From assembly GCA_964500895.1 (NCBI GenBank), contig CAZCQP010000002.1, positions 1,812 to 65,811 of the forward strand: a stretch of 64,000 nucleotides of DNA, written 5' to 3'. Below are positions 9,136-34,921 of the stretch, in pieces. Numbering within the stretch: position 1 is the first letter of the stretch; every line of letters starts with the position of its first letter. A model generated the notes under the pieces. That model made no database searches. It was not told the DNA's origin and was given only the letters and a program-made list of their open reading frames with translations. The stretch comes from an uncultured Eubacteriales bacterium (GTDB taxonomy: Bacteria; Bacillota; Clostridia; Lachnospirales; JAISER01). Both the position numbers and the translations under genes were made by a program.

Positions 9136-9180
9136 CGTTATTTCCCTCCAACATCAATGATATTAAGCCATCATACATGA

Positions 9181-9210
9181 AAAAAAAGGCAAGCGCAAGG
9201 GCGCTTTTGC
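9181..9210 (-). terminator. Putative terminator after the M15 peptidase gene
   Basis: A-run at 9181-9187 followed by hairpin gcaagcgc-aagg-gcgcttttgc, which reads as hairpin plus T-run on the minus strand. Confidence 0.4.
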
Positions 9211-9217
9211 ATAAATT

Positions 9218-9676
9218 TTACGCATTATTGCTGCTTTTTCGTGCTTTTTCCCAAGGCCAAGGGTCGTCTGGCGGCATTTTACCTTGTTGCAGTTCCCGTA
9301 TGGTAAGCCCGCCAGACCATTGAAAATGGGGCATATCCACCAGGGTTTCCCAGTTTCCGCCCCACTCCAGCCCCAGCTCTTGCCCCATATGCCCTGCAAG
9401 GGTTAAAATGGCTTTATAATGCACGCTTCCGGTGATGTGGTAATAAACATCAAAGGCCAGCCCATAATTATGAAAACTTTCCCCGCCCCGGGCGTTGGTG
9501 ATGATGCGGCCCGGTATGTCACGCCCATGCTTGTACAAGGCATCTTGGCTTTCAAAGTCCCGGTAAGTGGAGCTTAGGCCAAGGTGATGCCCCATGTCTT
9601 CCATGCGCCGCAAAAGTTCTGCCGCTGCCCGTTGCATTGGGGGGTATAAATCTGTTATGCTATTGCTGTTTACCAT
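9218..9676 (-). CDS. Peptidase M15 (CwlK/VanY-like cell-wall endopeptidase), no signal peptide
   Basis: Motifs SFHNYGLAFDV and LEWGGNW...DMPHF are typical of the Zn-dependent D-Ala-D-Ala carboxypeptidase/L-Ala-D-Glu endopeptidase fold. Confidence 0.75.
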   Translation of the reverse strand: MVNSNSITDLYPPMQRAAAELLRRMEDMGHHLGLSSTYRDFESQDALYKHGRDIPGRIITNARGGESFHNYGLAFDVYYHITGSVHYKAILTLAGHMGQELGLEWGGNWETLVDMPHFQWSGGLTIRELQQGKMPPDDPWPWEKARKSSNNA

Positions 9677-13177: not shown

Positions 13178-13189
13178 GCAATAAAAAAA

Positions 13190-13230
13190 GCGGGGCACTG
13201 TAGGATTAATTTCTCCTTACAGTGTCCCGC
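13190..13230 (-). terminator. Terminator after tRNA-Trp, also positioned after nrdJ
   Basis: Hairpin gcggggcactgtagg...ccttacagtgtcccgc with a T-run on the minus-strand reading. A second perfect hairpin, cctttcggaaa-tgg-tttccgaaagg, lies at 13246-13270. Confidence 0.6.
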
Positions 13231-13277
13231 TTATAAAAAATAAAACCTTTCGGAAATGGTTTCCGAAAGGTTTGCAA

Positions 13278-13350
13278 CAGGGGCAGTAGGACTTGAACCC
13301 ACGACATCAGGTTTTGGAGACCTGCGTTCTACCAACTGAACTATACCCCT
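13278..13350 (-). tRNA. tRNA-Trp (anticodon CCA)
   Basis: Manual cloverleaf: acceptor AGGGGTA/TGCCCCT, D arm GTTC-AGTTGGTA-GAAC, anticodon stem CAGGT/ACCTG with loop CTCCAAA, T arm GTGGG-TTCAAGT-CCTAC. CCA is not encoded. Confidence 0.9.
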
Positions 13351-13376
13351 AAGCTAAGCTAAGTTCAACAGAGGTA

Positions 13377-13405
13377 ATTCTATACCAAAACGGCTTATAA
13401 GTCAA
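13377..13405 (-). promoter_or_regulatory. Sigma-A type promoter for tRNA-Trp
   Basis: Minus strand reads TTGACT, a 17-nt spacer, then TAGAAT, about 25 nt upstream of the tRNA 5' end. Confidence 0.6.
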
Positions 13406-13664
13406 GGCTAAATTTTTTGAATCTGGATTCATAATAAGGAATGCTGGATTTTCGAGCGAATTTTTTGCCAGCTCAGCACGTTTGCTACACAAACGCCGCA
13501 CCTTTGGTGCGTCCGGCCTTCTTGCCGGTGCATCAAGGCAAATTTTCGCAGGAATACCCTTGAGGTATTTCAAGAAAATTTAACGCAGTATGGCATAAAA
13601 TTGGCCGAAAAGGCGGCGTTTTGTTTATGAAGACAGGTTCTAATCTTTGCAGAACGGACGGAAA

Positions 13665-14174
13665 ATGATGAACACACAGCTTAAGAATCTTTCATTAACG
13701 GCTTTATTTACAGCACTTATAGCCATGGCCACCATGGCCATTTCCATTCCTGTTCCCATCGCCCAGGGCTACATCCATTTGGGGGACGGGGTGATTATAG
13801 CCATCAGCTTTTTCTTTGGCTGGCGCAAAGGGGTTGCTTCTGCTGCTATTGGTTCAGCCTTGGCAGACATTTTAACCGGTTATGCCCACTGGGTACTTTT
13901 CACCTTAATCATTAAAGGGTTAATGGCTTTGCTTGTGGCCAAGCTGTGCCGGGCAGACAAGCCTCTTTTCTGCTTTAGAAACATTTCTACCCTTGTGGCT
14001 GCGGAAGTTGTAATGGTTGTGGGCTATTTTTTAGCGGGCATTGTGCTGACGGGCGCACTGGCTTCCTTGCAAAGCATTCCGGCCAACGGCGTGCAGGCCA
14101 TTGGTGGTATGGTCACATTTAGTGTCATTGCAGCCGCCCTAAAAAAAGCCAATGTGGCAAAATATGTTCAGTAA
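13665..14174 (+). CDS. ECF-transporter S-component-like small membrane protein (substrate unknown)
   Basis: About 170 aa with 5-6 TM helices and the GYIHLGDG motif. The track starts at a TTG (13647); I prefer the ATG at 13665 or 13668. Confidence 0.55.
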   Translation: MMNTQLKNLSLTALFTALIAMATMAISIPVPIAQGYIHLGDGVIIAISFFFGWRKGVASAAIGSALADILTGYAHWVLFTLIIKGLMALLVAKLCRADKPLFCFRNISTLVAAEVVMVVGYFLAGIVLTGALASLQSIPANGVQAIGGMVTFSVIAAALKKANVAKYVQ

Positions 14175-14756
14175 TTACAAAAATAGCGAAACTGCGCAGT
14201 ACACCAGCAACAGCCCCATCACCGTATTTAATATGCGGGCATGAGCAGAAAAGGCTTTGCAAAACACGGCCCCAAAAACCGCCCAGCATAGGGTGGACGT
14301 AAACCCGATAAAAGCAAGCATCAGCGCAAAGCCAATAATTTCTGGCCACCCGTTGAAATGGGGCAATATGTAGGCAGACATAGACGTTACCCCATAAATC
14401 ATAATTTTAGGGTTTAAAAACTGTAACAGCATTCCGCTTATGAAAGAGCTGCCTTTGGCTTCTCCTTCACCAATATGCGCACCGCTTTTAAATGTTTTAT
14501 AGGCCAGAAACAGCATATACAGCGCCCCAGCCCCCTGCATAAAGGGTTTCACCACCGGCAGTAGCGTAAATAAGGAATAGCTGAACAAGGCCACCAAAAG
14601 CATAATCACCGAAAACCCGGCCCATATGCCCAGGTTAAACGGGAAGCTTTTCTTAAAGCCCAGCCGGCTGGCATTGGACATGGACATGATGTTGTTGGGG
14701 CCGGGGGTGTAGGCGGTAATGAACACATACATTAGAAACGAATACCAGTTAAACAT
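14175..14756 (-). CDS. LysE/RhtB-family amino-acid exporter
   Basis: 193 aa. N-terminus FITAYTPGPNNIMSMSNASRLGFKKS is typical of LysE-type translocators. Confidence 0.75.
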   Translation of the reverse strand: MFNWYSFLMYVFITAYTPGPNNIMSMSNASRLGFKKSFPFNLGIWAGFSVIMLLVALFSYSLFTLLPVVKPFMQGAGALYMLFLAYKTFKSGAHIGEGEAKGSSFISGMLLQFLNPKIMIYGVTSMSAYILPHFNGWPEIIGFALMLAFIGFTSTLCWAVFGAVFCKAFSAHARILNTVMGLLLVYCAVSLFL

Positions 14757-14794
14757 TGAGCAACCTCCTATACTTACAGAATGGAGCGATACAT

Positions 14795-15325
14795 ATGGAA
14801 CAAGCAGTCATTCGTTTGGCCACAGCAACCGACATTGATGCCATTGAGGGTTTGTATAACGACTTGGCAGACTTTCACGCTGCCAACACAGACTATACAG
14901 GCTGGAAAAAACATATTTACCCCAATCGATCCACCGCCGAGGAAGCGCTTGCCAAGGGTGCACTGTATGTGGCAGACCGGGCCGGCTGCATTGAGGCCAC
15001 CGTTATTTTAAATAGCTACCAACCAGACGCTTACGCCGCCGCAGACTGGCAGATTCCCGCCGAACCATGGGAAATATTGGTCATCCATACATTGGCCGTA
15101 CATCCATTATACCATAGCAAAGGCCTGGGGAAAAGTTTTTTAGCTTTTGCCGAACAATTAGCCCAGGAGCGTAACATGAAAGCCATTCGCCTGGATACGG
15201 CCATGACCAACAAACCGGCAGCCGCTTTATACGAAAAAATAGGTTATCGATTTGCCGGGCTGGTGGATTTGAACTTGGCTTATAACCCCACACAGTTTCG
15301 GTGCTACGAAAAGGCCATTGGATGA
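14795..15325 (+). CDS. GNAT-family N-acetyltransferase
   Basis: Acetyl-CoA binding motif HPLYHSKGLGKSFL. Start chosen at MEQAVIRLA. Confidence 0.75.
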   Translation: MEQAVIRLATATDIDAIEGLYNDLADFHAANTDYTGWKKHIYPNRSTAEEALAKGALYVADRAGCIEATVILNSYQPDAYAAADWQIPAEPWEILVIHTLAVHPLYHSKGLGKSFLAFAEQLAQERNMKAIRLDTAMTNKPAAALYEKIGYRFAGLVDLNLAYNPTQFRCYEKAIG

Positions 15326-15430
15326 CTTGATGGATACGGGATGGTGTTGTTAGCGGGGCCTTTGGAGAAAGTCAATGAAGAAGGCACGGTTTGCGCTGTT
15401 GGAGTGCGCATGTTGGAATTGTTTTTAGAG

Positions 15431-18400
15431 GGAATCATCGCCCTTCCCTTGCGAGGGACGACTGTTGCCCCGGTTCTTATGTGTCCGCTCCTGTAATATT
15501 TCAATCCACGTCCCCTTGCGGGGGACGACTTTCATTTTAACTCTAATTGATTTATGTTTAAAATTTCAATCCACGTCCCCTTGCGGGGGACGACGGGTTT
15601 TTTGCAAGACAATAAAGTCAAATTGATTATTTAAATCCACGTCCCCTTGCGGGGGACGACGGTACACCTCTTTTCATAAATTTTAAATTCGTAAATTTAA
15701 ATCCACGTCCCCTTGCGGGGGACGACGGCCCCAATTTTATCCGCTGGCATATCCTTTGTTTATTTCAATCCACGTCCCCTTGCGGGGGACGACCCGTGCG
15801 GCTTCCCGTTCATCGTCCGTTTGAGCTTATTTCAATCCACGTCCCCTTGCGGGGGACGACCCCTCGTAGTCCTTGTTGATGACAAAGTCCTGTCCATTTC
15901 AATCCACGTCCCCTTGCGGGGGACGACTTGGTGGCATCAATACCATCACGCACAACAGCGGAATTTCAATCCACGTCCCCTTGCGGGGGACGACCACCCA
16001 CACCGTTGCCCTGGTTTTGCTTGGCTTGCAATTTCAATCCACGTCCCCTTGCGGGGGACGACAACATTTCTTCCATTGTTAGACCGGGAAAACATTATTT
16101 CAATCCACGTCCCCTTGCGGGGGACGACCCATTACGGAGGTACAGCTTTTTGATACAAATAACATTTCAATCCACGTCCCCTTGCGGGGGACGACATGCC
16201 CGTTGACCTGGCCCCGCCGAGGGCAGGGAGTATTTCAATCCACGTCCCCTTGCGGGGGACGACGCAATAAGTCCAAGCAATTGCGCAATGGGTGGAAATT
16301 TCAATCCACGTCCCCTTGCGGGGGACGACATGGCTGTTTTTAACTATTCCAATGATTTTTGCATTTCAATCCACGTCCCCTTGCGGGGGACGACTGGATG
16401 TAATTAACGCTAATGCCAGGTGGGACAGCATTTCAATCCACGTCCCCTTGCGGGGGACGACACTGGGCGCGGACGGCTGGGTGGGGGACTTTTATAATTT
16501 CAATCCACGTCCCCTTGCGGGGGACGACCCAAACAGGCAAGGAAATAACCATAGGCGCAAAGGATTTCAATCCACGTCCCCTTGCGGGGGACGACGGGTG
16601 CGCCCGGCGCAACTAAAATCCACCTATCCCCATTTCAATCCACGTCCCCTTGCGGGGGACGACGTCCTCACTCTTCCACTTTCTGATGCGACTTTCGGAT
16701 TTCAATCCACGTCCCCTTGCGGGGGACGACCCGAGTGTACCAGACCGTCGCCGATGAGGATGATTGATTTCAATCCACGTCCCCTTGCGGGGGACGACTG
16801 TCCTGGAGTTACTGATATCGGCATATCTAGCACATTTCAATCCACGTCCCCTTGCGGGGGACGACAATGTAACCTCTTGCGCTCTTGTACAAATTTTGGT
16901 TATTTCAATCCACGTCCCCTTGCGGGGGACGACATCTTATCCTGCGCTTTGAGCCGTCCTTCAAAAAATTTCAATCCACGTCCCCTTGCGGGGGACGACT
17001 TTTGTTTTGTTGCTACGCTGAACTCGTTCTTCTATTTCAATCCACGTCCCCTTGCGGGGGACGACAGTTTCTATTGGTGATGTATACTACAACCAATCTA
17101 TTTCAATCCACGTCCCCTTGCGGGGGACGACGTCCTCACTCTTCCACTTTCTGATGCGACTTTCGGATTTCAATCCACGTCCCCTTGCGGGGGACGACTA
17201 TGGGGCCTGTCCAATCAGCTGGGGTTTAACGATATTTCAATCCACGTCCCCTTGCGGGGGACGACGACGATGGATGATGACCGTTTGGAACTACTGAAAC
17301 ATTTCAATCCACGTCCCCTTGCGGGGGACGACGGGTCGGATTATACGCTACCGAATGTATTAAACATTTCAATCCACGTCCCCTTGCGGGGGACGACACA
17401 ATAAAATACATACCCTTCCCCTTTGGGCGAATTTCAATCCACGTCCCCTTGCGGGGGACGACGATACGGCGGCCATACAGATGTTCTTTACACGTATATT
17501 TCAATCCACGTCCCCTTGCGGGGGACGACTATTCGTCTGGAGCAAATTCTTCCTGGTCGATATTAATTTCAATCCACGTCCCCTTGCGGGGGACGACCAA
17601 GCAGGGGGATAGCAATAGATACTAAGCTCTTTATTTCAATCCACGTCCCCTTGCGGGGGACGACTGTTCTGTTTATTAATACTCCGTAATTTCAACAATT
17701 TCAATCCACGTCCCCTTGCGGGGGACGACCATTTCAAAAGGGTAAGCTAATGGAGGCGATATTCTATTTCAATCCACGTCCCCTTGCGGGGGACGACACT
17801 ATGCTATCTAAGTATAATCAAAAAAAAACAAGATTTCAATCCACGTCCCCTTGCGGGGGACGACTCTTCGCTCATGTCATTTGATATAAATATTTTTATT
17901 TCAATCCTCGTCCCCTTGCGGGGGACGACTGACGATGCTGCCGTTATACCGGGCGTTATGCTATTTCAATCCACGTCCCCTTGCGGGGGACGACGACCAC
18001 TTCATCTTGTGGCATGACCTTGAGGCCATTTCAATCCACGTCCCCTTGCGGGGGACGACATTAGACGGGCAATGGAGGTACAATCGCCTAGTCAATTTCA
18101 ATCCACGTCCCCTTGCGGGGGACGACCCGGATGGACTTGCTACCGGTTGAGGTCAAAGAATTTCAATCCACGTCCCCTTGCGGGGGACGACGGTAAATCA
18201 TAATGGTCTTCGTCATCTATAATAATTTCAATCCACGTCCCCTTGCGGGGGACGACATTCCTGTGGCAAACTCACTTAACGTCTCAACAGATATTTCAAT
18301 CCACGTCCCCTTGCGGGGGACGACATAAGCTCTACAGCATGGCTAAGTACGCCATCAGCAATTTCAATCCACGTCCCCTTGCGGGGGACGACTTAATGAC

Positions 18401-21400
18401 CAAGGTATCCCTAGGTTAATTGACCTATTTCAATCCACGTCCCCTTGCGGGGGACGACAACGTTTAAGCACTGCATTTCCAAATATAATCCCATTTCAAT
18501 CCACGTCCCCTTGCGGGGGACGACTGTAGGATGGGCTGCGTTTTTAAGCGAAATCAAGATTTCAATCCACGTCCCCTTGCGGGGGACGACTTCAATTTGT
18601 TTTGTTCGGACAATTTGTCAACAGATTTCAATCCACGTCCCCTTGCGGGGGACGACTTTATTCGGGGTATTAAACAAATCAAGCTCATTAGCATTTCAAT
18701 CCACGTCCCCTTGCGGGGGACGACAATGCCATAGCCTTTAATATCGGCCATGGCATTTTATTTCAATCCACGTCCCCTTGCGGGGGACGACGTTTGGGGA
18801 TGCGGTTAAGGGCTTGCATTTGTACGATTTCAATCCACGTCCCCTTGCGGGGGACGACGCCTGATTACATGAAAACGCAGGAGCGACTGAATATTTCAAT
18901 CCACGTCCCCTTGCGGGGGACGACTGAACCGTGGCCAGTACGACAATACCGACCAATATATTTCAATCCACGTCCCCTTGCGGGGGACGACAAATATCGG
19001 CCGAACTGGCGTAAGCAGTTATAATATTTCAATCCACGTCCCCTTGCGGGGGACGACATCGTGCCCCCGAAGCCGGTGCCCAGGTAATTAAAAATTTCAA
19101 TCCACGTCCCCTTGCGGGGGACGACCACTTGCAACCCATGACTGCCAAGCAAAAGCCGGAGATTTCAATCCACGTCCCCTTGCGGGGGACGACTGGCTGT
19201 AACATTGGCATCATTGATGACCCCATTAAATTTCAATCCACGTCCCCTTGCGGGGGACGACACCACTCATAAGCCAATTCAAAAATGCAAGTTGCTATTT
19301 CAATCCACGTCCCCTTGCGGGGGACGACAGTTGCTGGACGAATGATTGATATAATTTCAGATATTTCAATCCACGTCCCCTTGCGGGGGACGACAGTTTG
19401 CGCCGACAATCGTAATATGACCGCCGGGATTTCAATCCACGTCCCCTTGCGGGGGACGACGAAACCGACACCGTATTAACGGCAACCTACGAAAACATTT
19501 CAATCCACGTCCCCTTGCGGGGGACGACACCAGTACAGATTGCCTATGTATCTTGCAGATGGATTTCAATCCACGTCCCCTTGCGGGGGACGACGATAGC
19601 ATAACACAGGTTGACGTTCGCCGAGTAAAATTTCAATCCACGTCCCCTTGCGGGGGACGACCTCTGCCATTTCTCATGTATGGCGTCGCCTTCTGCATTT
19701 CAATCCACGTCCCCTTGCGGGGGACGACCCAATCTGGGCTTTTACGTCAACTTGCCTTTCTTATTTCAATCCACGTCCCCTTGCGGGGGACGACAACGAG
19801 GATAGGCTACATAACAAACACAAACGAGCATTTCAATCCACGTCCCCTTGCGGGGGACGACTGGGTTTAAAATCCTCTCAAGCAAGTTTTTGTTTGATTT
19901 CAATCCACGTCCCCTTGCGGGGGACGACTAACATCGAGATGGCATTAGCAAAAGGTGACAAGATTTCAATCCACGTCCCCTTGCGGGGGACGACCTTTTG
20001 TTCAAAGTAACAACTTTTTGTTTACAAGATTTCAATCCACGTCCCCTTGCGGGGGACGACCTCATTGCTGCTTGTCAACGCAGGGTTGTTAACTATTTCA
20101 ATCCACGTCCCCTTGCGGGGGACGACAGCTTACATAGTAGCGCCTATCACCGGAGAAACTATTATTTCAATCCACGTCCCCTTGCGGGGGACGACGAAAG
20201 CAACCCAAAAGCGCCGGTTACTGTATTCAAATTTCAATCCACGTCCCCTTGCGGGGGACGACCTTGCGCTATTTTGTAATTTAAGCGCTGACTGTTCGAT
20301 TTCAATCCACGTCCCCTTGCGGGGGACGACTGCTTAGTTCGTAGCAATCTTCTCCCAAATCGCTATTTCAATCCACGTCCCCTTGCGGGGGACGACTGGA
20401 GGCGCTTAGCGATAAATATGCCGCACTGCAAATTTCAATCCACGTCCCCTTGCGGGGGACGACAATTCTGGCGCTATCAATGCATTGAACTTTAACGATA
20501 TTTCAATCCACGTCCCCTTGCGGGGGACGACGCCAGCAAGTCGACTACAATATCACGGAACACCTCTAGTCGATTTCAATCCACGTCCCCTTGCGGGGGA
20601 CGACACATAAATACGCTGGGGCTTACCTCCTACATCTGGATTTCAATCCACGTCCCCTTGCGGGGGACGACGACGAAGAACCTCGTCAACCAGCATAGCC
20701 TCTTTATTTCAATCCACGTCCCCTTGCGGGGGACGACAATTACCTGTCCTGCTTATTGTTGGATTTTGAGAATATTTCAATCCACGTCCCCTTGCGGGGG
20801 ACGACTCCACGCCTTTTGCCTGACCGTTTGCTCCATTGATTTCAATCCACGTCCCCTTGCGGGGGACGACCCCTTCATCCCTATAAATGTGCTCATCAAA
20901 AATTATTTCAATCCACGTCCCCTTGCGGGGGACGACAAGGCTTTTATGTTTTACATTCCATTCCCGTCAAATTTCAATCCACGTCCCCTTGCGGGGGACG
21001 ACGTAGTTTTGCCGGTGTTAAAAATTCGATTGGTGCAATTTCAATCCACGTCCCCTTGCGGGGGACGACAAGCCTGTCAAATCTGTGGGGGCGTTTTTCA
21101 AGGTATTTCAATCCACGTCCCCTTGCGGGGGACGACAATGTCGATGTCAAACAAGGCTTTAGTGGTCATGATTTCAATCCACGTCCCCTTGCGGGGGACG
21201 ACAGTATTCTTCGCTTGCTGTTGGCAGGCCCTTAACAATTTCAATCCACGTCCCCTTGCGGGGGACGACACGGTTTTAAATTTATCAAGCGTATCCCTCA
21301 ACAATTTCAATCCACGTCCCCTTGCGGGGGACGACATCTATGGATACACCATCAGATAGTATGGTTTTGCATTTCAATCCACGTCCCCTTGCGGGGGACG

Positions 21401-24400
21401 ACGGGTAGGCGCTGGTGCAGAGACGCTTCCTGGCGATATTTCAATCCACGTCCCCTTGCGGGGGACGACCAGACAAGTCATATTGCAGCAATGACTTTGG
21501 GTTATTTCAATCCACGTCCCCTTGCGGGGGACGACCGCCCCGCCATAAGGTAGGGGCTATAATTATATACCATTTCAATCCACGTCCCCTTGCGGGGGAC
21601 GACGGCCATCTTCCAGCAAGTGCGTTAGCCACGGGATGATTTCAATCCACGTCCCCTTGCGGGGGACGACCCAACTGGGTTAACGAGTGTGTCTTTATCT
21701 ATGTTATTTCAATCCACGTCCCCTTGCGGGGGACGACCTTTTAAGTCCTTAGTTATGTGCAACCCTGTTTATTTCAATCCACGTCCCCTTGCGGGGGACG
21801 ACATAAGTCTAACTTTGTTCTCGTGGTTTCTATCAAGATTTCAATCCACGTCCCCTTGCGGGGGACGACCATAACCTCCATAACCCAAATGCAAGAGCGA
21901 GAGCAATTTCAATCCACGTCCCCTTGCGGGGGACGACGCTTGCGCTTCGTTATTTGCGCGTTCTACAGCTTATTTCAATCCACGTCCCCTTGCGGGGGAC
22001 GACTCTGGTTAACATGCGTATCGCTCCTTGTTAGTTTTATTTCAATCCACGTCCCCTTGCGGGGGACGACGCGGATTATTTTGTCGGGGTTATTTATCAT
22101 TAACATTTCAATCCACGTCCCCTTGCGGGGGACGACAATGCCGACTGTAACGGCAGTTACAATATTATTAATTTCAATCCACGTCCCCTTGCGGGGGACG
22201 ACATGGCTTTACATTTAAGCAAAAAGCACGACATAAATTTCAATCCACGTCCCCTTGCGGGGGACGACAAGGTGCGTCCGTTCCGTCCTCATCTATATCC
22301 CAGCATTTCAATCCACGTCCCCTTGCGGGGGACGACTAGCCACCAAAAGATTGTGTTGCTTTTTGAGATAAATTTCAATCCACGTCCCCTTGCGGGGGAC
22401 GACATTTTACCCCTTTCGGCTGTGCAGCCCTTATAAATTTCAATCCACGTCCCCTTGCGGGGGACGACTTGATACTGGTTGCCTTTAATAGCCGTTATTT
22501 TGTATTTCAATCCACGTCCCCTTGCGGGGGACGACTTAGGCTAATGGATGTAATGGGTAAGGGTTGTAATATTTCAATCCACGTCCCCTTGCGGGGGACG
22601 ACTTAGGCGGCAAGACGTTTTTTGAAAAGGCAGTAGAAATTTCAATCCACGTCCCCTTGCGGGGGACGACCTCAACGCTGTTATTACTGTCATGCGTCAA
22701 AACATTTCAATCCACGTCCCCTTGCGGGGGACGACTATTTTGTCGATTATGTTTGGAACTTTATTTCCATTTCAATCCACGTCCCCTTGCGGGGGACGAC
22801 TTTAACTTCAAAGTTTCATAGTTGTCGAGTATTACATTTCAATCCACGTCCCCTTGCGGGGGACGACGTCGCTATCGCAACCCATCCTGCTTGCGCAAGT
22901 GTATTTCAATCCACGTCCCCTTGCGGGGGACGACTCTTTTATCTGGTCCCTTAAGGCTTGTTGCTCATCAATTTCAATCCACGTCCCCTTGCGGGGGACG
23001 ACGTTGGCTTGCTTATGTAATTGTGTCAAACAACAAAGATTTCAATCCACGTCCCCTTGCGGGGGACGACCAAAAACAAAAAACCAGGTTTCAGTTATCC
23101 TCTATTTCAATCCACGTCCCCTTGCGGGGGACGACCCACCACTACTGTCCAATCTTCCTGGATGAGCAATTTCAATCCACGTCCCCTTGCGGGGGACGAC
23201 TCAAGTAGATACCACAAGGATTTTTAGCCAGTATATTTCAATCCACGTCCCCTTGCGGGGGACGACTGGCAGTGAGAGGCGGGGAAATTTCGGTTTGCGA
23301 TATTTCAATCCACGTCCCCTTGCGGGGGACGACTACAACAGGCTTAAATCACTTATGCTGCATGCCAATTTCAATCCACGTCCCCTTGCGGGGGACGACT
23401 AAGGCGCATGAGGCCAACAGAGCAGCCAGAAAATTTCAATCCACGTCCCCTTGCGGGGGACGACTGCAGTAGGATTTAAGCTGGGCTTCAAGGTCTTTGA
23501 TTTCAATCCACGTCCCCTTGCGGGGGACGACGGGTAAGGGTAAGGGTTGTAATGGGGGAGGGAGGATTTCAATCCACGTCCCCTTGCGGGGGACGACGCC
23601 TTGCCGCCAAAGATAACCCATTGCTGTTTAAATTTCAATCCACGTCCCCTTGCGGGGGACGACCCATGTGCCTATTGTTAACCGTGGCAATAGCTTTTAT
23701 TTCAATCCACGTCCCCTTGCGGGGGACGACTAAAGCGTTGCCAATTTCAACCTGTATTTCTTCTATTTCAATCCACGTCCCCTTGCGGGGGACGACTTAA
23801 CTAAAAATTTAAACAGGTGGTGCATTTAATATTTCAATCCACGTCCCCTTGCGGGGGACGACCACACAAGTAACACGCAAGTAACACGCTTAGTAGAATT
23901 TCAATCCACGTCCCCTTGCGGGGGACGACAGCGATTGCTGACATAAGACAATACTTTTCATCAATTTCAATCCACGTCCCCTTGCGGGGGACGACAGCAG
24001 CACTCGTATAATAAACTCCAGCGTACTGGATTTCAATCCACGTCCCCTTGCGGGGGACGACATGTTTTCTTGCGAAATAACGTCCTGTGCTGTTTTATTT
24101 CAATCCACGTCCCCTTGCGGGGGACGACTAAGTCTGGATAAAGAAATTATAAAAACCGGATTTATTTCAATCCACGTCCCCTTGCGGGGGACGACCATCA
24201 AGTCTGGTGTATCAATCTTAAGATTTTTTATTTCAATCCACGTCCCCTTGCGGGGGACGACTCACTGTCGGCCGCATACCCGTTTATGGACGATATTTCA
24301 ATCCACGTCCCCTTGCGGGGGACGACCCCTGCCCCTGAAATTTTTTCTGCTATTGCCATCGATTTCAATCCACGTCCCCTTGCGGGGGACGACGAAATTA

Positions 24401-27400
24401 AGCCTAACGAAGACCGTGAGCTTGGAATTTCAATCCACGTCCCCTTGCGGGGGACGACATTTTTTACCGGCATTGCCGGGGATTACCAAAGCAATTTCAA
24501 TCCACGTCCCCTTGCGGGGGACGACTAAGGCTTTTATGTTTTACATTCCATTCCCGTCAAATTTCAATCCACGTCCCCTTGCGGGGGACGACGGTGTCCG
24601 TGAGCAACATAAAAGCCGCCCTGCATATAATTTCAATCCACGTCCCCTTGCGGGGGACGACTGAAATTAAGCCTAACGAAGACCGTGAGCTTGGAATTTC
24701 AATCCACGTCCCCTTGCGGGGGACGACTCCGCTCGTTGTTTTGTCGTTACTAATTTTTATCATTTCAATCCACGTCCCCTTGCGGGGGACGACATCCATA
24801 GATACTCCAATGCAAGCCTCAATAAATATTTCAATCCACGTCCCCTTGCGGGGGACGACCCAAAGTCCGCCCCGTCTGGCACTACATCTGCTGGATTTCA
24901 ATCCACGTCCCCTTGCGGGGGACGACGCCCTTGAATATTATTCTACTTCCGTTCGGGAACTTATTTCAATCCACGTCCCCTTGCGGGGGACGACCAGAGC
25001 AATACAATACGCTCTTAGGGCTTCCTGCTATTTCAATCCACGTCCCCTTGCGGGGGACGACTCGGAACGAAGCTTATCGATATGCCGTACTGGTTATTTC
25101 AATCCACGTCCCCTTGCGGGGGACGACCGATGCTCTCAAGCGATTCATTCACTGCTTCTTCATTTCAATCCACGTCCCCTTGCGGGGGACGACATAAACG
25201 AGTTCGGGTTTCCTGTTATTAGCAAAGAATTTCAATCCACGTCCCCTTGCGGGGGACGACTGATTCAGAGGCAAGCAATCCTAATTTGCTAACGATTTCA
25301 ATCCACGTCCCCTTGCGGGGGACGACAAAGCTTAACGAAACTACAGTGACGGCCGCACAAATGATTTCAATCCACGTCCCCTTGCGGGGGACGACCGCAG
25401 AACAGTATTGGTCGTGGATTTGTTGATTTTATTTCAATCCACGTCCCCTTGCGGGGGACGACTGATATAATTGCTCGCTACCTCTTAATGCGTTATTATT
25501 TCAATCCACGTCCCCTTGCGGGGGACGACTGACGAAAACAACAACATTAAAGCAGGGTTTAAAATTTCAATCCACGTCCCCTTGCGGGGGACGACAAATT
25601 CTACAACCGCAACGATTGACCGCAGAATCAATTTCAATCCACGTCCCCTTGCGGGGGACGACGGGCGCAACCAAGGGCGAGCTAAAAGCGAATTACAAAT
25701 TTCAATCCACGTCCCCTTGCGGGGGACGACTTCTGCCGCACCTTTTTTGCCAAGCGCTTCACGGAAATTTCAATCCACGTCCCCTTGCGGGGGACGACCC
25801 TTTCCATAACGATAATCGGCCTAGCGCATCCGTATTTCAATCCACGTCCCCTTGCGGGGGACGACGATGACACCGGGCAAGGGTAATTTCTTCCGTATTT
25901 CAATCCACGTCCCCTTGCGGGGGACGACCACAGCAGATAGCGCAGAGCCACGTACAATTAATATTTCAATCCACGTCCCCTTGCGGGGGACGACGTTTGA
26001 CGAGTGTATGAGGGTTTTGAAACCCAATGATTTCAATCCACGTCCCCTTGCGGGGGACGACGTAAAGGGCAATAATAGCCAAACATTTGCCATAACGATT
26101 TCAATCCACGTCCCCTTGCGGGGGACGACTTGTCACAGCTTGACATTGCAAAGATTGAGCTTGACATTTCAATCCACGTCCCCTTGCGGGGGACGACGAC
26201 GCAAGTTGATGTTGATACCGATATTTTAAACATTTCAATCCACGTCCCCTTGCGGGGGACGACATTGGGACACAGCTTCAAAACTGCTGCTGCGGCATTA
26301 TTTCAATCCACGTCCCCTTGCGGGGGACGACGTGTTGCGTTCGCTCAAAACGTTCCAAACTTAACGGATTTCAATCCACGTCCCCTTGCGGGGGACGACC
26401 ACAAGGCGTTTACAATTCAGCAACGCCTATAGAGAATTTCAATCCACGTCCCCTTGCGGGGGACGACAAGCCAAGCAGCCACTTTAGCCGCCGAATATAG
26501 AAATTTCAATCCACGTCCCCTTGCGGGGGACGACATTTGATTCCGCTGATGATGCTATGGCCGAAACTATTTCAATCCACGTCCCCTTGCGGGGGACGAC
26601 ATGGTTACACGCAGTACGCATAAGGAGGCAGGGATATTTCAATCCACGTCCCCTTGCGGGGGACGACAAATGCGTTTGATTTGCCGCCAGATTATTTTCA
26701 ATTTCAATCCACGTCCCCTTGCGGGGGACGACATAAATGGCTGAAACTCACTGGAAAAAACTTAATTTCAATCCACGTCCCCTTGCGGGGGACGACTTGG
26801 TCATGGAGCTGTTAACCTTCCGCCCGCTAGTTTCTGTATCTACGTCGCCTTGTGGGGGTCTAGTATGTTTATTGGGTTTGGAGTACAAAAAAATTTCAAT
26901 TTCAATCCACGTCCCCTTGCGGGGGACGACGCTTCGTCAATTTCGGCTTGTAGTTGTTCGGTTTATTTCAATCCACGTCCCCTTGCGGGGGACGACACTA
27001 GCAGCCGGTGGAATTATTTTATAAGCGAAAAATTTCAATCCACGTCCCCTTGCGGGGGACGACGTGTCATAATCGGCATATTTAGCTTGTTCTTGTTATT
27101 TCAATCCACGTCCCCTTGCGGGGGACGACTAATTGCGTTTGCTGTGATGGCCGCATCATCTGTAGATTTCAATCCACGTCCCCTTGCGGGGGACGACGCC
27201 ACTTGTCAATCTCTGCTTGTGCGTCATCAACATTTCAATCCACGTCCCCTTGCGGGGGACGACCCCCGTCAATTTTTGCTGATCCGGCAACATACGTATT
27301 TCAATCCACGTCCCCTTGCGGGGGACGACCATTGACCAACCGTTCTGACCGAGATTATATTGTATTTCAATCCACGTCCCCTTGCGGGGGACGACCCATA

Positions 27401-28463
27401 TGGCAAATAATTATAGAGGTGATTACATGATATTTCAATCCACGTCCCCTTGCGGGGGACGACAATGTAACTTGGCTAAAGCCACGAATGCGGTTTGATA
27501 TTTCAATCCACGTCCCCTTGCGGGGGACGACAATAAATCACATCCAATTGTTTGTTTCTATTGTGCATTTCAATCCACGTCCCCTTGCGGGGGACGACGG
27601 CGTTATATTGTGCGGTGCTTGTAGTAAAAAACATTTCAATCCACGTCCCCTTGCGGGGGACGACGTTCAATGTAAATCATTAGCAAGTCATCAGACAAAA
27701 TTTCAATCCACGTCCCCTTGCGGGGGACGACTTCGCCCATCGAGCAAGGTCTTTTGTTATTTGCATTTCAATCCACGTCCCCTTGCGGGGGACGACGGGT
27801 GGAGCCAGTGGGAGAGTTTTAACACAATCGGATTTCAATCCACGTCCCCTTGCGGGGGACGACTTTCCTGTAATTTTTTCAAGCTCTGCGGAAAGTTTTA
27901 TTTCAATCCACGTCCCCTTGCGGGGGACGACGGCACGATTATCACCAACCCTTCACATTTACAAAATTTCAATCCACGTCCCCTTGCGGGGGACGACCCT
28001 CATGGGCTGCCGATGCCTGGGCCTGGGGAAAAATTTCAATCCACGTCCCCTTGCGGGGGACGACAATCGAAAAAGGCCCAAGCTACTGCTATTTCGGCGA
28101 TTTCAATCCACGTCCCCTTGCGGGGGACGACATTGCAATGTCACGGAGTTGCCCGAAACAGCAATATTTCAATCCACGTCCCCTTGCGGGGGACGACTTG
28201 TGACGCCACTTTTAGCCTAAACAACAGCATTATTTCAATCCACGTCCCCTTGCGGGGGACGACGACATGATTGGAGACACCAATGATTTGCTTGGTGGTA
28301 TTTCAATCCACGTCCCCTTGCGGGGGACGACTAATTGTCAATAGGTAAATTTGATTATTTATATGATTTCAATCCACGTCCCCTTGCGGGGGACGACTGA
28401 GGCAAGGGACGAATTGCAAGCATTGAAACAGATTTCAATCCACGTCCCCTTGCGGGGGACGAC
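15431..28463 (-). CRISPR. Type I-C-like CRISPR array, 196 repeats (32 bp) and 195 spacers
   Basis: Plus-strand repeat is ATTTCAATCCACGTCCCCTTGCGGGGGACGAC; the minus strand reads GTCGTCCCCCGCAAGGGGACGTGGATTGAAAT. I listed every repeat start by hand, from 15431 to 28432, with spacing of 63-73 bp. Spacers are mostly 33-36 nt. The degenerate terminal repeat at 15431-15462 and the AT-rich leader next to cas2 set the polarity. Confidence 0.97.
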
Positions 28464-28632
28464 AGCAAAAATGCATACATTTAACTATCATTCAAGCAAA
28501 TAAACATACAACAATTACAAAAAACACCTATGACCAAGACAAAACGCCAATTTCCAAGCATGGCAATACCCCAAAACACCTTAATTTCCAGTGCGAAAGA
28601 TGCCCCAAAACCATGTACGCTTAAGGTTCGCA
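28464..28632 (-). promoter_or_regulatory. CRISPR leader
   Basis: 169-bp AT-rich, non-coding segment between the cas2 stop codon and the first (newest) repeat. Contains an internal 35-bp imperfect tandem duplication. Confidence 0.7.
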
Positions 28633-28923
28633 CTACACCATTAAAATGCCCTCCACGTCAAACCCTGGCTTAGCCCCAACATGGGTCACTTTCGTTTTGT
28701 AATTGTTTCCCAAGTTGTAAAAGCGCAGGCTATCCTTTTCCGCATCAATGAGCGCTTCCAGCTTGTGCTTCACCTCGGCCAACTGGGTTGCGTCCAGCAC
28801 GCATTCAAAAACTGAATTTTGAACCCTCTGCCCGTAATTGACACACTGTTTAGCCACCTGCCGCAGCCGTTTGCGCCCCTGGGCTGTTTCTGTGTTCACA
28901 TCATAAGTAATTAAAACAAGCAT
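28633..28923 (-). CDS. cas2: CRISPR-associated endoribonuclease Cas2
   Basis: 96 aa starting MLVLITYDV, a ferredoxin-like Cas2 pattern. The track ORF (148 aa) extends upstream into cas1, so I use the internal start. Confidence 0.9.
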   Translation of the reverse strand: MLVLITYDVNTETAQGRKRLRQVAKQCVNYGQRVQNSVFECVLDATQLAEVKHKLEALIDAEKDSLRFYNLGNNYKTKVTHVGAKPGFDVEGILMV

Positions 28924-28931: not shown

Positions 28932-29963
28932 CTACTTCCACAAAAATGGTGGATACGCCTCTAAGTCGCCCCGCAAATGCCGGGCCAGCAGCATGGCTTG
29001 CACGTGAGGCACTAATCCCCACTGTATTTTTTCTTCCAAAAACGGATGGGTAATGGTTTCCTGTTTGCGGGCTTGCCACGCACTTAGAAATGCTTTGCGT
29101 GCGGCATCATCCATAATGACGGCGCCATTTTCCTTTACGGTGAACCCTTTGGCATGAACTTCCCGCTTGTTAATGAGGGAAAGCACAAATCGGTCGGCCA
29201 GGATAGGGCGCATTTCTTCCATTAAATCCAGCGCAAGAGAGATGCGCCCGGGGCGGTCTCGGTGCAAAAAGCCCACGTAGGGGTCTAGCCCAACCCCTTC
29301 TAGCGCCGATGCTACATCGTTTGCCAGCATGGTGTACGCAAAGGAAAGCAGCGCATTCACTTTATCCAAAGGCGGTCTTCGGCTGCGGGTGTGAAATTGA
29401 AAGTCCTCTTTTTGCTGCAAAATCAACTGGTCTATGACACCAAAATACCGAGTGGCACTTTCGCCTTCCAGGCCACGCAATTGCTCAAGGTTTTCACAGT
29501 CTTTGATGGCATCTGTAGATTTTTTAATGAGTGCAGAAGCCTTTTTTAATTGCTCAACGTCAACCCGGGCGGCGTGGTCCCGGGTGGCCCGCTCTATGAC
29601 CCAGCGTGCATTATACAGCTTGCCGATAATCATGTTTTGTGCAATGAACAGGGACTGCTGCTCGTCATCTGAAACCCTGTACTGCTTTTTGCGCAGCAAC
29701 ACATTGCCATGCACTTCCCCCACAATGCGTGCCTGAAACCGGCCGCTGGGGCTTAAAAAGCAAAGGGCAATATTTTTTGCGGCACAGGCCCGCATGAGCG
29801 CTGGGCTTGCGCCTGTGTAGCCAAAAGTTACAATGCTTTCAACATTATGTAAAGGCAAACGGATGACTTCCTGCTCCTCTTTTCGCACGACGATGTTTTC
29901 CCCGTCTAAAGAAAGATAGTGTTCAGGGGTTGTGATATACAACGTGTTCAGCAATTTTCTCAT
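28932..29963 (-). CDS. cas1: CRISPR-associated endonuclease Cas1 (I-C type)
   Basis: 343 aa. N-terminus MRKLLNTLYITTPEHYLSLDGENIVV and conserved C-terminal region (FGYTGASP, LDLMEEMRP). Overlaps cas4 by 4 nt. Confidence 0.92.
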   Translation of the reverse strand: MRKLLNTLYITTPEHYLSLDGENIVVRKEEQEVIRLPLHNVESIVTFGYTGASPALMRACAAKNIALCFLSPSGRFQARIVGEVHGNVLLRKKQYRVSDDEQQSLFIAQNMIIGKLYNARWVIERATRDHAARVDVEQLKKASALIKKSTDAIKDCENLEQLRGLEGESATRYFGVIDQLILQQKEDFQFHTRSRRPPLDKVNALLSFAYTMLANDVASALEGVGLDPYVGFLHRDRPGRISLALDLMEEMRPILADRFVLSLINKREVHAKGFTVKENGAVIMDDAARKAFLSAWQARKQETITHPFLEEKIQWGLVPHVQAMLLARHLRGDLEAYPPFLWK

Positions 29964-30625
29964 GCGTCTGCCTCCCCAATTCTTGTTTGAATATAGTGGG
30001 CCACGGATGCCTTTTTCAGCATTTTAGGAAGGCAAAAGTCCGCCAACGAGCAGGACTTACAGGCTTTGTTAGGCTTACACTTGGGTGTGTGCCCCCGTTG
30101 GTAATGCTGGTGCATTTCTTTCAGCATGTCCTTAGCGGTTTGGCGTAGGGTTTGGGTGAAGGCGACTGGCAGCCTGCGCCTTGTTTCGCCGTAAAACAAA
30201 TAGCCTTCCTGAATATCACAGACAAACATTTCCTCTAAACATAATGCTTGTGCGCACAATTGCAGTTCGTCTGCGTCATTTTGCTTTGGTGCGCCTCGCT
30301 TATACTCCACCGGCACCACACGGTATGTACCATCCCGGCCATGAATGGTGATGCCACTTGCATCTTTCCAAAGCTCCACCACATCGCAGACACCGGATAT
30401 GCCCAGATCCCGGGACATCACCGGCATACTGCGGGTGATCAGCACATCGCCCCGCTTTTCCACAGAAGCTTCATGGGCTTTTTCGTGCAGAAATCTGCCT
30501 TCAAGGGTGAGCACATTTTCCTTCCATGCCTGTTCAACGTGAATCAGCCCCCACTGGCGGCGGCAAAAGGCAAAATGTTGTATGCCCGATAACGGGAGAA
30601 AGTCTTCTTCGTTAAACATCATCAA
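29960..30625 (-). CDS. cas4: CRISPR-associated exonuclease Cas4
   Basis: 221 aa. RecB-like motif (VPVEYKRG), N-terminal Cys (HFAFCRRQW) and C-terminal Cys cluster CKPNKACKSCSLADFC. Confidence 0.9.
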   Translation of the reverse strand: MMMFNEEDFLPLSGIQHFAFCRRQWGLIHVEQAWKENVLTLEGRFLHEKAHEASVEKRGDVLITRSMPVMSRDLGISGVCDVVELWKDASGITIHGRDGTYRVVPVEYKRGAPKQNDADELQLCAQALCLEEMFVCDIQEGYLFYGETRRRLPVAFTQTLRQTAKDMLKEMHQHYQRGHTPKCKPNKACKSCSLADFCLPKMLKKASVAHYIQTRIGEADA

Positions 30626-30784
30626 CCATCCTTAACAGTGGAACCCCCAACGTTTAATCCGCATTGATATAGCATAATTTTACACCAGTTACCATTATTA
30701 TACAACAAAAAATGCATGTATCCATTATCAGTAAAACCTGGTATAATTCTGCCAACCAATTTAATTGAAGGGAAGATAAGCGTG

Positions 30785-31357
30785 ATGCAACTGCTCTTAT
30801 TGTGCGACGGGCAAAGCCAGGACTTTTGCGGCTGCAACCTTGGAGAAGCGGCTGCCGAAGCAGCCCAAAAAGTAGGTTTTGAAACAAAGCGTTTATTGTT
30901 GGATTTTGACCACATACAACCGTGCGTGGGCTGCTTTGACTGTTGGGTGAAGACCCCCGGCCTTTGCATACAAACAAAAGACAACGCCAACAGCATTTGC
31001 CGTGATTTTGCCCGCAGTGATGCGGTGCTACTGCTTTCTAAAGTGACCTACGGCAGCCATAGCCCGGACGTTAAGGCTATGCTGGACCGTATCATTCCCA
31101 ATGCATTGCCATTTTTTGAAACGGTGGAAGGGGAAATGCACCACCCCAAACGCTATGCCAAAGTTCCCAACTGGATTGCTTTTGGCTACGGCAACATGAC
31201 GGATGAAGAAGCGGATACCTTTGCAGCGCTGACGGTGCGCAACAGCCTGCACTTCCACCCACCAAAACGCTGCACCTTGCTCACCCGCAGCGCAGCAGAT
31301 TTACCCCAAGCGTTAGAGGGCTTACAGGCTTTTTTAAAAGAGGAGGGAACAAAATGA
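30785..31357 (+). CDS. Flavodoxin-like / NAD(P)H-dependent FMN reductase family protein
   Basis: Flavodoxin-fold pattern including CVGCFDCWVKTPGLC. Start chosen at MQLLLLCDG. Divergent from cas4. Confidence 0.6.
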   Translation: MQLLLLCDGQSQDFCGCNLGEAAAEAAQKVGFETKRLLLDFDHIQPCVGCFDCWVKTPGLCIQTKDNANSICRDFARSDAVLLLSKVTYGSHSPDVKAMLDRIIPNALPFFETVEGEMHHPKRYAKVPNWIAFGYGNMTDEEADTFAALTVRNSLHFHPPKRCTLLTRSAADLPQALEGLQAFLKEEGTK

Positions 31358-31998
31358 GACGCATTGTAGCCATTAACGGCAGCCCAAAAACCAAAGGGGT
31401 ATCGGCCATGCTTTTGGAACAGCTAGGCGGCCGCCTTCAAGGGAAGCTGGAAATAGAACAAGCCATGAAGCTGCTGAAAACCCCGGAAAAGCTGGCAGAC
31501 ATCCTTTCTGCCGACTGCCTGCTTATTGTGTACCCCCTTTATGTGGATGCCCTGCCTGCACCCCTTCTAAAAGTGCTAACCTTGCTGGAGGAAGCGGCCC
31601 AAACAGTAGCCCAAGACCAGCCCCTGCCAAAGGTTTATGCCCTGTGCAATTGCGGCTATGCAGAGCCACAGCAAATAAGCCTGTCTTTTAAAATGCTTCA
31701 ACATTTTTGCAGCAGGGCCGGGTTAACCTGGCAGCAGGGTGTGGCCATTGGTGCAGGTGGGTTTTTACAGCCCAAAATGAAAGATTTGACTAAAGGCCCC
31801 ACAAAACCAATTGCCCAGGCGCTGGATGCTTTAGCCAAAGCCGTCGATGGCCGGGAAGTGCCCAGCGGCCAGAACGTCTTTACAGCCCCACAAATTCCAC
31901 TGTTTATATACAAGGTAGGGGCCACCCTGTCCTGGCACATTGCAGCCCGGAAAAATGGGGCCAGCGGAAAGCTGAAAGCCAGGCCACACATGGAATGA
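31354..31998 (+). CDS. Flavodoxin-like / NAD(P)H-dependent oxidoreductase
   Basis: N-terminus MRRIVAINGSPKTKGVS is typical of the FMN-reductase fold. Overlaps the upstream gene by 4 nt. Confidence 0.6.
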   Translation: MRRIVAINGSPKTKGVSAMLLEQLGGRLQGKLEIEQAMKLLKTPEKLADILSADCLLIVYPLYVDALPAPLLKVLTLLEEAAQTVAQDQPLPKVYALCNCGYAEPQQISLSFKMLQHFCSRAGLTWQQGVAIGAGGFLQPKMKDLTKGPTKPIAQALDALAKAVDGREVPSGQNVFTAPQIPLFIYKVGATLSWHIAARKNGASGKLKARPHME

Positions 31999-34843: not shown

Positions 34844-34921
34844 AGCCATTGCTCCTTGTCCATTCATGAAGTTTTGGCCGCCGGAATAAGACAAACCGGC
34901 GGCCTGCAAGGGACGTATGTA

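Follow-up and report, generated by a model that had tools for sequence, protein, structure and literature searches.

The window (the whole 64-kb stretch of DNA that was analysed) contains, on the minus strand, a CRISPR array with 196 repeats (32 nt each) and 195 spacers (31–41 nt), together with a leader and an adaptation module, cas4, cas1 and cas2, which is the only cas content of the locus beside the array. Repeats are numbered from the leader end. The features are as follows:

15431..28463, minus: CRISPR array; consensus repeat GTCGTCCCCCGCAAGGGGACGTGGATTGAAAT
15431..15462, minus: terminal (trailer-end) degenerate repeat, no. 196; 11/32 mismatches, 5΄ half kept, 3΄ half diverged
15629..15726, minus: repeats no. 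193 and 192 with the intervening spacer; read ...GGATTTAAAT (G28 to T)
17898..17929, minus: repeat no. 159; U22 to A, forward-strand copy reads CCTCG
26832..26863, minus: mid-array degenerate repeat, no. 25; 10/32 mismatches
28464..28632, minus: leader, 169 nt, A+T-rich; aligns with the leaders of five relatives
28464..28471, minus: junction motif TTTTTGCT, adjoining the first repeat
28503..28511, minus: –10-like motif TGTATGTT within the leader
28591..28633, minus: conserved leader element GTGCGAA-N29-TTCGCAC, overlapping the cas2 stop codon
28633..28923, minus: cas2 (96 aa); TIGR01573 77 bits, PADLOC best Cas2c with 147.5 bits
28932..29963, minus: cas1, type I-C (343 aa); TIGR03640 511.5 bits against a cutoff of 385, PADLOC Cas1c 555 bits
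29960..30625, minus: cas4 (219–221 aa); TIGR00372 125.5 bits, PADLOC Cas4c 309 bits
30697..30724, minus: promoter-like site, TGGATA and TATAAT 16 nt apart, some 70 nt before cas4; consensus match only
30716..31998, plus: two FMN-reductase-like genes; PF03358 barely over threshold

Anatomy, type and length of the array

A fuzzy search of the window with the consensus repeat recovered 194 copies between positions 15498 and 28463, of which 191 were exact and three carried one substitution. With the two degenerate copies, this gives the 196 repeats and 195 spacers between 15431 and 28463 that the first-pass annotation had counted. That annotation had also listed five deviating copies. Two of these are the degenerate repeats, and the three single-base variants (the copies at 15629 and 15695, both of which carry ATTTAAAT, and the copy at 17898) were found where it had placed them. 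The repeats were spaced 63–73 bp apart throughout, and the sole gap of 134 bp is the site of degenerate copy no. 25. When an independent repeat finder sorted units of two repeats and their spacer according to spacer length, it obtained families of 71, 61, 36 and 22 copies, in agreement with the count. TRF was rejected as a repeat counter, since the unrelated spacers caused it to report the array as numerous overlapping fragments. Callers that work from seeds would probably divide the array in two at the mid-array degenerate copy, with about 171 repeats in one part and 25 in the part abutting it; since these would share repeat, strand and register, they would not be unrelated arrays. The locus has the general properties of CRISPR arrays, namely direct repeats within 23–55 bp, mostly unique spacers of similar length, and a leader at one end with a degenerate repeat at the other.

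The array is of type I-C and in minus-strand orientation. Its degenerate terminal repeat lies at the end far from the leader, and the array is located downstream of cas2 in the same orientation, an arrangement shared with 80 relatives. The repeat folds into a 2-nt overhang, a 7-bp stem, a 5-nt loop and an 11-nt UGGAUUGAAAU tail (–12.9 kcal/mol), which bears out the earlier description of a minus-strand repeat with a 7-bp stem and an ATTGAAAT tail. Characterized I-C repeats are identical to it in overhang, stem, loop and tail and in U22-G23-G24; these three bases are recognized by Cas5c, and U22 is the first base past its cleavage site (PMC8524198). The type assigned in the first-pass annotation also agrees with the Cas1c score on TIGR03640 and with PADLOC, whose best models for the three genes were Cas1c, Cas2c and Cas4c. 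The hairpin of repeat no. 25 cannot form, and UAG stands in place of the consensus UGG directly past the stem; because this repeat is unfoldable and no. 159 lacks U22, some units would escape processing. The consensus repeat matched no Rfam family at either threshold, and the exact repeat had no match among species-representative genomes. An exact-repeat search of metagenome contigs returned one match, a 3-kb human-gut contig, which was unusable for a comparison of spacer turnover: it carries a ...GAAAC repeat variant, different spacers and an unrelated flank.

Alignment of the leader with those of relatives showed that the leader–repeat junction is also conserved, and an exact copy of the GTGCGAA-N29-TTCGCAC element occurs in 30 of 83 related loci. 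Minus-strand transcription of the array is predicted to start from the 169-nt leader downstream of cas2.

We compared the length of the array with those of 31 complete arrays that adjoin related Cas1c genes, which had a median of 27 and a maximum of 84 repeats; the present array exceeds the median by a factor of about 7 and the maximum by a factor of 2.3. The earlier statement that it is exceptionally long therefore holds against related arrays, in whose far tail it lies, but the length is not unprecedented: in one relative, Ornatilinea apprima P3M-1, a I-C array comprises at least 142 repeats and is still running at the end of the fetched DNA, and arrays of Haliangium ochraceum DSM 14365 contain 587 and 189 spacers (PMC7145573, PMC8047081). 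These two species likewise have a single array of well over 100 spacers with highly uniform repeats. The present array is shorter than the record-length arrays, and it is paired with an adaptation module only. It is a real, unusually long but otherwise ordinary type I-C array, belonging to a known system and not to a new mechanism. The first-pass annotation attributed the length to very high acquisition activity or unusually low spacer loss, either of which may apply. Arrays of such length are useful records of past infection and bear on the limits to array size, such as crRNA dilution, autoimmunity and spacer loss.

Adaptation genes and the missing effector genes

The adaptation genes are intact, with no sign of decay in their predicted products. 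Of the highly conserved columns, Cas1 retains every one (151) and Cas4 38 out of 39; those of Cas4 include four cysteines and D79/E105/K107, which we read as putative Fe-S ligands and nuclease motif, respectively. The site at 30697..30724 is a possible promoter of cas4-cas1-cas2, although promoter-like sites in the region upstream of cas4 are no more frequent than in shuffled sequence.

The closest relatives are two I-C (Dvulg) loci of Clostridia from MAGs, L002 and L003, whose Cas1 proteins are 85% and 84% identical to that of the window. These loci and the characterized I-C systems of Bacillus halodurans, Streptococcus mutans and Desulfovibrio vulgaris contain Cas1c, Cas2c and Cas4c, as here, and share with the window the 32-nt repeat (2-nt overhang, 7-bp stem, 5-nt loop and 11-nt tail starting UGG). 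Also shared are the position of the array after cas2 on the same strand, a conserved leader and spacers of 33–36 nt. However, the arrays of these relatives are several times shorter, and their cas4 is preceded by cas3, cas5c, cas8c and cas7, which are missing in the window. Immediately before cas4, cas7 is present in all but one (L069) of 75 related loci for which the upstream sequence suffices, and where the upstream sequence is long enough, cas3-cas5c-cas8c lie ahead of cas7-cas4. An intact adaptation module parted from the effector genes is rare, at about 1 in 75 related loci.

We found no gene or remnant of cas3, cas5c, cas8c or cas7 anywhere within the 64-kb window by family scans and tblastn, which covers 15 kb on one side of the locus and 35 kb on the other. 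The family scans, in which neither cas6 nor cas5c was detected, covered every non-nested open reading frame of at least 140 aa, with the hut and arg genes (37.8–46.9 kb) and the last open reading frame named by eye instead. Type I-C systems have no cas6, as processing is the task of Cas5c. The tblastn searches of the window with Cas3, Cas5c, Cas8c and Cas7 from four relatives yielded nothing better than E = 0.2. Furthermore, the 132 267-bp source contig is not the location of any of the top 120 relatives of a close Cas7c. Because the signature effector genes are absent from the window, the locus is a I-C array with an adaptation module and not a complete I-C system.

Homology to L002 ends at the start of cas4, and the two FMN-reductase-like genes sit where relatives have cas7, cas8c, cas5c and cas3, which places the boundary of the cas locus there. 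The junction between cas4 and the FMN-reductase-like genes is real: both this junction and the trailer junction are 100% identical in an independent contig, L001.

Two other loci were considered as sources of the missing effector. A second I-C locus from the same sequencing run, L085, was rejected as a source in trans, since its GC content of 35%, compared with 50% here, indicates another organism. Another relative, L086, has 50% GC; it is unsupported as the missing module, as it has its own cas4 and cas1, which show only 72% DNA identity, and is itself decaying. In L086, cas3 is truncated and cas8c is frameshifted.

Origin and targets of the spacers

The spacers are mostly 33–36 nt long. An all-versus-all comparison identified 192 distinct spacers; only three are repeated, and no blocks are duplicated. 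In the pairs sp57/sp61 and sp59/sp113, the two copies share the same 5΄ end and differ by 1 nt at the 3΄ end, which fits separate integrations with a fixed PAM-side end rather than duplication or assembly error. The mean GC content of the spacers was 43.1%, compared with 47.8% for TTC-flanked 35-mers of the host, and none of 10 000 resamples reached the observed mean. The spacers are thus not a random sample of host DNA, and their GC content below that of the host suggests a foreign origin.

The first-pass annotation had proposed that the spacers be searched for targets, the PAM and self-targeting. We compared the 195 spacers with 50 697 INPHARED phage records and found no convincing protospacer; the best match covered 31 of 34 nt in a methyltransferase gene of Enterococcus phages (E = 0.06). 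All 195 also lacked a match in 72 556 PLSDB plasmids. IMG/VR was scanned with exact seeds from eight spacers, namely the three acquired twice and sp1, sp3, sp4, sp8 and sp37, again with no match, and only chance 16–18-mers were shared with 1.1 Mb of fetched loci. The PAM is presumed to be 5΄-TTC. Outside the array, the window offers 51 kb of host DNA, in which the longest match to any spacer was 17 nt and none was a real self-match. Because the 192 distinct spacers lack a match in the phage and plasmid collections and in the eight viral-contig scans, they point to an uncharacterised set of mobile elements.

Interpretation of the locus

We consider it highly likely that this is a I-C array grown by Cas4-Cas1-Cas2 at the leader end, which could confer immunity only through an effector module acting in trans. 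Growth would proceed by one repeat-spacer unit per step at the side of position 28463, and the adjacent intact Cas4-Cas1-Cas2 would be the integration machinery behind it. A minus-strand transcript from the leader would then contain, for each repeat, a 7-bp hairpin followed by UGGAUUGAAAU, and Cas5c of type I-C would cleave at the 3΄ base of the hairpin to give a crRNA with an 11-nt 5΄ handle. Cas5c, Cas8c and Cas7 would assemble on this crRNA, and Cas3 would be guided to matching DNA. The four interference genes would have been removed or displaced exactly at the start of cas4. Since they are absent from the locus, immunity would arise only if a I-C effector module exists elsewhere in the genome. 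We infer that acquisition is ongoing and that processing and interference take place in trans.

The interference module might instead be gone from the genome altogether, leaving the array as a silent record, either a fossil or one that is still extended. This would also explain the length of the array, because the costs of autoimmunity and crRNA dilution, which normally cap array size, would be removed. The absence of effector genes from the 64-kb window and of a close Cas7c from the 132-kb source contig, the break that falls exactly at the start of cas4, the effector decay in L086, and the presence of the unprocessable repeat no. 25 and the U22A repeat no. 159 within the array are all consistent with such a loss. 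However, the adaptation genes are undecayed, the leader is conserved, and the spacers are foreign in composition, with none matching the 51 kb of host DNA. Acquisition without interference is expected to lead to an accumulation of self-derived spacers, although this test is weak because the window is a small part of the genome. Moreover, distant arrays often match cas genes encoded in trans (Bernheim et al., PMC7145637), and in such distant or partial organizations the array and the cas genes for its use likewise lie in separate loci. As the array and usable cas genes are not in one locus here, the array could function only with cas genes supplied in trans. The partial cases commonly described are either cas-free arrays or effector modules that rely on a borrowed adaptation module, whereas here adaptation stays and the effector is missing. 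An effector in trans is somewhat more likely than a complete loss, which we regard as a possible but unlikely account. We place still less trust in the form of this reading in which the adaptation module, freed from its effector, keeps recording and has reached 195 spacers as nothing selects against length or useless spacers; this form is quite doubtful. In a weaker version, a non-cognate effector encoded elsewhere may read the array. If the genome were indeed wholly without effector genes, the locus would be a natural case of acquisition uncoupled from interference.

Two further explanations concern the integrity of the array itself. The leader-side 24 spacers with cas4-cas1-cas2 might have recombined into an older array of about 170 spacers without cas genes, the degenerate repeat no. 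25 being the former terminal repeat of the leader-side part. Ten changes in one repeat among 191 identical copies are not explained by point mutation, degenerate copies are typically terminal repeats, and such a junction would also account for a cas locus that ends exactly at cas4. We nevertheless consider this improbable: the repeats on either side of no. 25 are identical, spacer length and GC content are unchanged across it, the spacing is kept with no remnant of a leader or flank between the parts, and the changes are spread over the whole repeat, unlike those of the true terminal repeat at 15431, which fall in the 3΄ half. The same odd repeat could be a seam if the length were an assembly artefact, inflated or rearranged, for example, by the stitching of arrays from co-existing strains or by looping via repeated spacers. 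The length rests on one assembly, apparently derived from a metagenome, and an identical Cas1 is confined to one 132-kb NCBI contig and one contig of a run in which contig numbers go up to 50 000 and the 35%-GC relative is also present. In the only other assembly (Logan contig L001, k = 31), the entire array is collapsed to a single repeat, and the three repeated spacers create identical stretches of 99 nt that short reads resolve poorly. However, the 192 distinct spacers include no duplicated multi-spacer block, register and spacing are perfect across the array, and both flanks are independently confirmed. Standard assembler k-mers exceed a 32-nt repeat, so that unique spacers yield a linear path, and alternative strain arrays would appear as graph bubbles and not as serial concatenation. 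The 1-nt length difference seen in two of the repeated spacers is biological and does not reflect an assembler loop. We therefore regard an artefact as very improbable.

The locus appears to come from a poorly sampled, Oscillospiraceae-like lineage, a rough placement drawn from ArgH homologues and Cas1 relatives; the best match to the ArgH of the window is only 72% identical.

Architecture and type of the array

Searching with the repeat given in the first-pass annotation, with up to six substitutions tolerated, we recovered 194 copies between 15498 and 28463, of which 191 were exact and three carried one substitution. Start-to-start distances were 63–73 bp with a single exception, a 134-bp gap that holds a degenerate repeat (26832–26863, 10/32 mismatches); another degenerate repeat (15431–15462, 11/32 mismatches) closes the array. 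With these two copies, the total of 196 repeats and 195 spacers at 15431–28463 agrees exactly with that annotation, which had also correctly placed the three single-base repeat variants:

15629, single-base repeat variant
15695, single-base repeat variant
17898, single-base repeat variant

Spacers were 31–41 nt long (33–36 nt for 189 of them). An independent repeat finder returned repeat-spacer-repeat families of 71, 61, 36 and 22 members, which agree with the spacer-length classes, so that an automated check is consistent with the count. An all-against-all comparison yielded 192 distinct spacers, just three being repeated, and no repeated block.

The array is transcribed from the minus strand, as three features indicate. 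The repeat has the sequence GTCGTCCCCCGCAAGGGGACGTGGATTGAAAT there, the terminal degenerate copy is found at the low-coordinate end, and the high-coordinate end adjoins a leader followed by cas2, cas1 and cas4, all on the minus strand:

28464–28632, minus strand, leader, 169 nt, A+T-rich
28591–28633, minus strand, 43-nt element GTGCGAA-N29-TTCGCAC, approximately 170 nt upstream of the first repeat
28633–28923, minus strand, cas2
28932–29963, minus strand, cas1
29960–30625, minus strand, cas4

The cas genes beside the array are of type I-C, which bears out the I-C assignment in the first-pass annotation: Cas1 scored 511.5 bits against TIGR03640, the I-C model (cutoff 385), and the best PADLOC models for the three genes were Cas1c, Cas2c and Cas4c. 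The repeat fold points the same way. The repeat RNA is predicted to form a 2-nt overhang, the 7-bp stem previously claimed, a 5-nt loop and an 11-nt tail (–12.9 kcal/mol), an architecture identical to that of the characterised I-C repeats of B. halodurans, S. pyogenes, X. oryzae and S. mutans (PMC8524198). The consensus repeat also contains U22-G23-G24, which lies just past the cut site and is read by Cas5c in I-C repeats (PMC8524198).

Repeat no. 25 from the leader, the copy in the 134-bp gap, differs at ten positions from the 191 identical copies elsewhere, and both of its neighbours are perfect. Its hairpin cannot form, and it has UAG where the others have UGG. This repeat may mark the junction left by an old recombination, although spacer length and GC content are unchanged across it. 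A seed-based caller would probably split the array here into two abutting arrays in the same register, which are hence not unrelated. The two spacers beside repeat no. 25 would remain fused as one unprocessed unit.

The leader could be aligned with those of five relatives, which have in common the junction TTTTTGCT beside the first repeat and the 43-nt element overlapping the cas2 stop. This element, with 7-nt inverted ends and an internal AAG..ACAT, has exact matches in 30 of 83 related I-C loci, the majority from Firmicutes. It also occurs at position 1149 of L007, 742 of L008 and 13937 of L050 (all comparison loci); since it is present at second arrays away from cas2, it is part of the leader rather than of cas2. 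In addition, the TTGAAA tail of the repeat looks like a –35 hexamer, and a spacer with a –10-like hexamer 16–18 nt further on creates a promoter-like site. There were 24 such consensus matches in the array (17 on the transcribed strand), compared with 14.1 ± 4.0 in shuffles; these are possible candidates for internal promoters of the 13-kb array.

Length of the array and origin of its spacers

For the 31 arrays of related loci that were complete within the fetched DNA, the median was 27 repeats and the maximum 84. A further 36 related arrays end at a contig end or at the 10-kb fetch limit and therefore give lower bounds, among them arrays with no fewer than 82, 81 and (in Ornatilinea apprima) 142 repeats:

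11501–20958, Ornatilinea apprima P3M-1 (L015, NZ_LGCL01000016.1), I-C array of at least 142 repeats, running on at the end of the 10-kb flank

Ornatilinea apprima is a cultured organism with another very long I-C array. A bacterial array typically has fewer than 50 spacers, and arrays with more than 100 are described as relatively rare; Haliangium ochraceum holds the record with 587 spacers and has a second array of 189 (PMC7145573, PMC8047081). The 195 spacers therefore lie in the far tail of array lengths, yet with precedents; the earlier wording 'exceptionally long' is overstated.

Spacer GC content was 43.1% (s.e. 0.7), compared with 47.8% in host 35-mers following TTC; in 10,000 resamplings of host sites the mean was never as low, and no spacer matched the other 51 kb of the window. 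Because of these two results, the spacers are not a random sample of host DNA. Among 50,697 phage records we found a single weak spacer match (31/34 nt, E = 0.06, in a methyltransferase gene), and 72,556 plasmids, eight IMG/VR scans and the fetched related loci contained no target. The TTC PAM accordingly still stands as an expectation.

Adaptation genes without neighbouring effector genes

The adaptation genes look functional, judging from conserved residues. Cas1 has retained every one of the 151 columns with conservation of at least 97% in a set of 116 homologues, and Cas4 keeps 38/39 of those at least 95% conserved, including four cysteines and the triad D79/E105/K107, which we read as putative Fe-S cluster ligands and a nuclease motif, respectively. 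A promoter-like site (consensus match only) lies approximately 70 nt upstream of cas4. Two protospacers were each acquired a second time (sp57/sp61 and sp59/sp113), with equal 5΄ ends and 3΄ ends 1 nt apart, the pattern that separate integrations would leave if the PAM-side end is cut with precision. In type I-C systems, Cas4 has a role in defining the PAM-side end of the spacer. Duplication or an assembler loop would not yield the 1-nt 3΄ difference in these pairs. A rough birthday-type estimate from three coincidences among 195 spacers gave a sampled pool of approximately 6,300 sites, roughly a few hundred kb of target DNA.

A search with one genome per species found 80 loci encoding relatives of this Cas1, the closest being two MAGs (85% and 84% identity). 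In related loci cas3, cas5c, cas8c and cas7 lie upstream of cas4, as determined by family models for L003 (one of these MAGs) and by tblastn over all loci, and three further relatives from read-archive assemblies have the same upstream genes. Where enough upstream sequence was available, cas7 was directly upstream of cas4 in 74 of 75 loci (the exception being L069). Homology of the window to its closest relative, however, ends exactly at the cas4 start, past which are two FMN-reductase-like genes on the opposite strand, followed by a large regulator and by histidine-utilisation and arginine-biosynthesis genes:

32018–34909, minus strand, BTAD + AAA_16 + TPR protein, STAND-like regulator, 963 aa, three genes from cas4 (marginal PADLOC match, E = 6e-4)

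No further cas gene emerged from family scans of the large ORFs to either side (those for histidine utilisation and arginine biosynthesis, and the last ORF, were named by eye), and tblastn searches using effector proteins from four relatives gave no match in the window better than E = 0.2. Only an adaptation module therefore accompanies the I-C array at this locus. An independent contig from SRR10912416 (L001) matches 32281–28432 at 100% identity and reproduces the cas4/FMN-reductase junction, so this junction did not arise by misassembly of the source record.

The evidence best supports a normal I-C array, which would have been built at its leader end by Cas4-Cas1-Cas2. An artefact of assembly is an improbable cause of the array's length, given unique spacers, a perfect register and confirmation of both flanks, even though the source evidently comes from a metagenome and the array is collapsed in the one other assembly. 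In that other assembly (L001, k = 31) the first repeat is joined straight to the last spacer, reducing 13 kb of array to one repeat, which illustrates how such arrays disappear from short-k assemblies.

Defensive use of this leader-built array would require cas5c, cas7, cas8c and cas3 to act from elsewhere in the genome, and we give such function in trans a somewhat better than even chance. The window is approximately half of the 132,267-bp NCBI source contig, and none of the best 120 relatives of a close Cas7c lies on that contig. It is possible, but rather doubtful, that interference has been lost and the array is silent or memory-only. What makes the locus of interest is chiefly the combination of a very long array and intact adaptation genes with no interference genes in cis; that interest is modest unless the genome turns out to lack effector genes entirely.

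Host lineage and other features

The exact repeat was absent from 185,579 species-representative genomes, and the best ArgH homologues, labelled Oscillospiraceae or Ruminococcus, were only approximately 72% identical; the host therefore belongs to a poorly sampled clostridial lineage. Two related loci were also noted:

2462–3121, L082 (human gut metagenome contig ORMO01011087), array with the same repeat
4563–9368, L086 (GCA_964546895.1, contig CAZJLW010000137.1), I-C locus of a 50%-GC MAG

In L082, three trailer-side repeats end in ...GAAAT like those of the window, and all later copies in ...GAAAC, a base change in a leader-proximal repeat that was then propagated; its spacers and flank are unrelated to the window's. 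L086 has an effector module in decay: of cas3 just a C-terminal piece of 261 aa is left, and in cas8c a 410-aa ORF is followed by a frameshift. Its cas5c, cas7 and cas4 have remained intact, and its cas1 is truncated where the contig ends; at the DNA level, cas4 and cas1 of L086 are only 72% identical to the window's genes.

Elsewhere in the window, a 510-aa ORF in a 40%-GC stretch (4227–5759, plus strand) had no match in Pfam, NCBIfam or PADLOC. The region 56000–62000, with lower GC content (43–46%) and strong AT skew, is possibly an integrated element:

57696–59216, large serine recombinase
59277–60038, class-A beta-lactamase-like gene, below the family cutoff

Between the genes for a sigma-54-dependent regulator and alr, a 206-bp unit is repeated 1.9 times at 92% identity (62003–62390).
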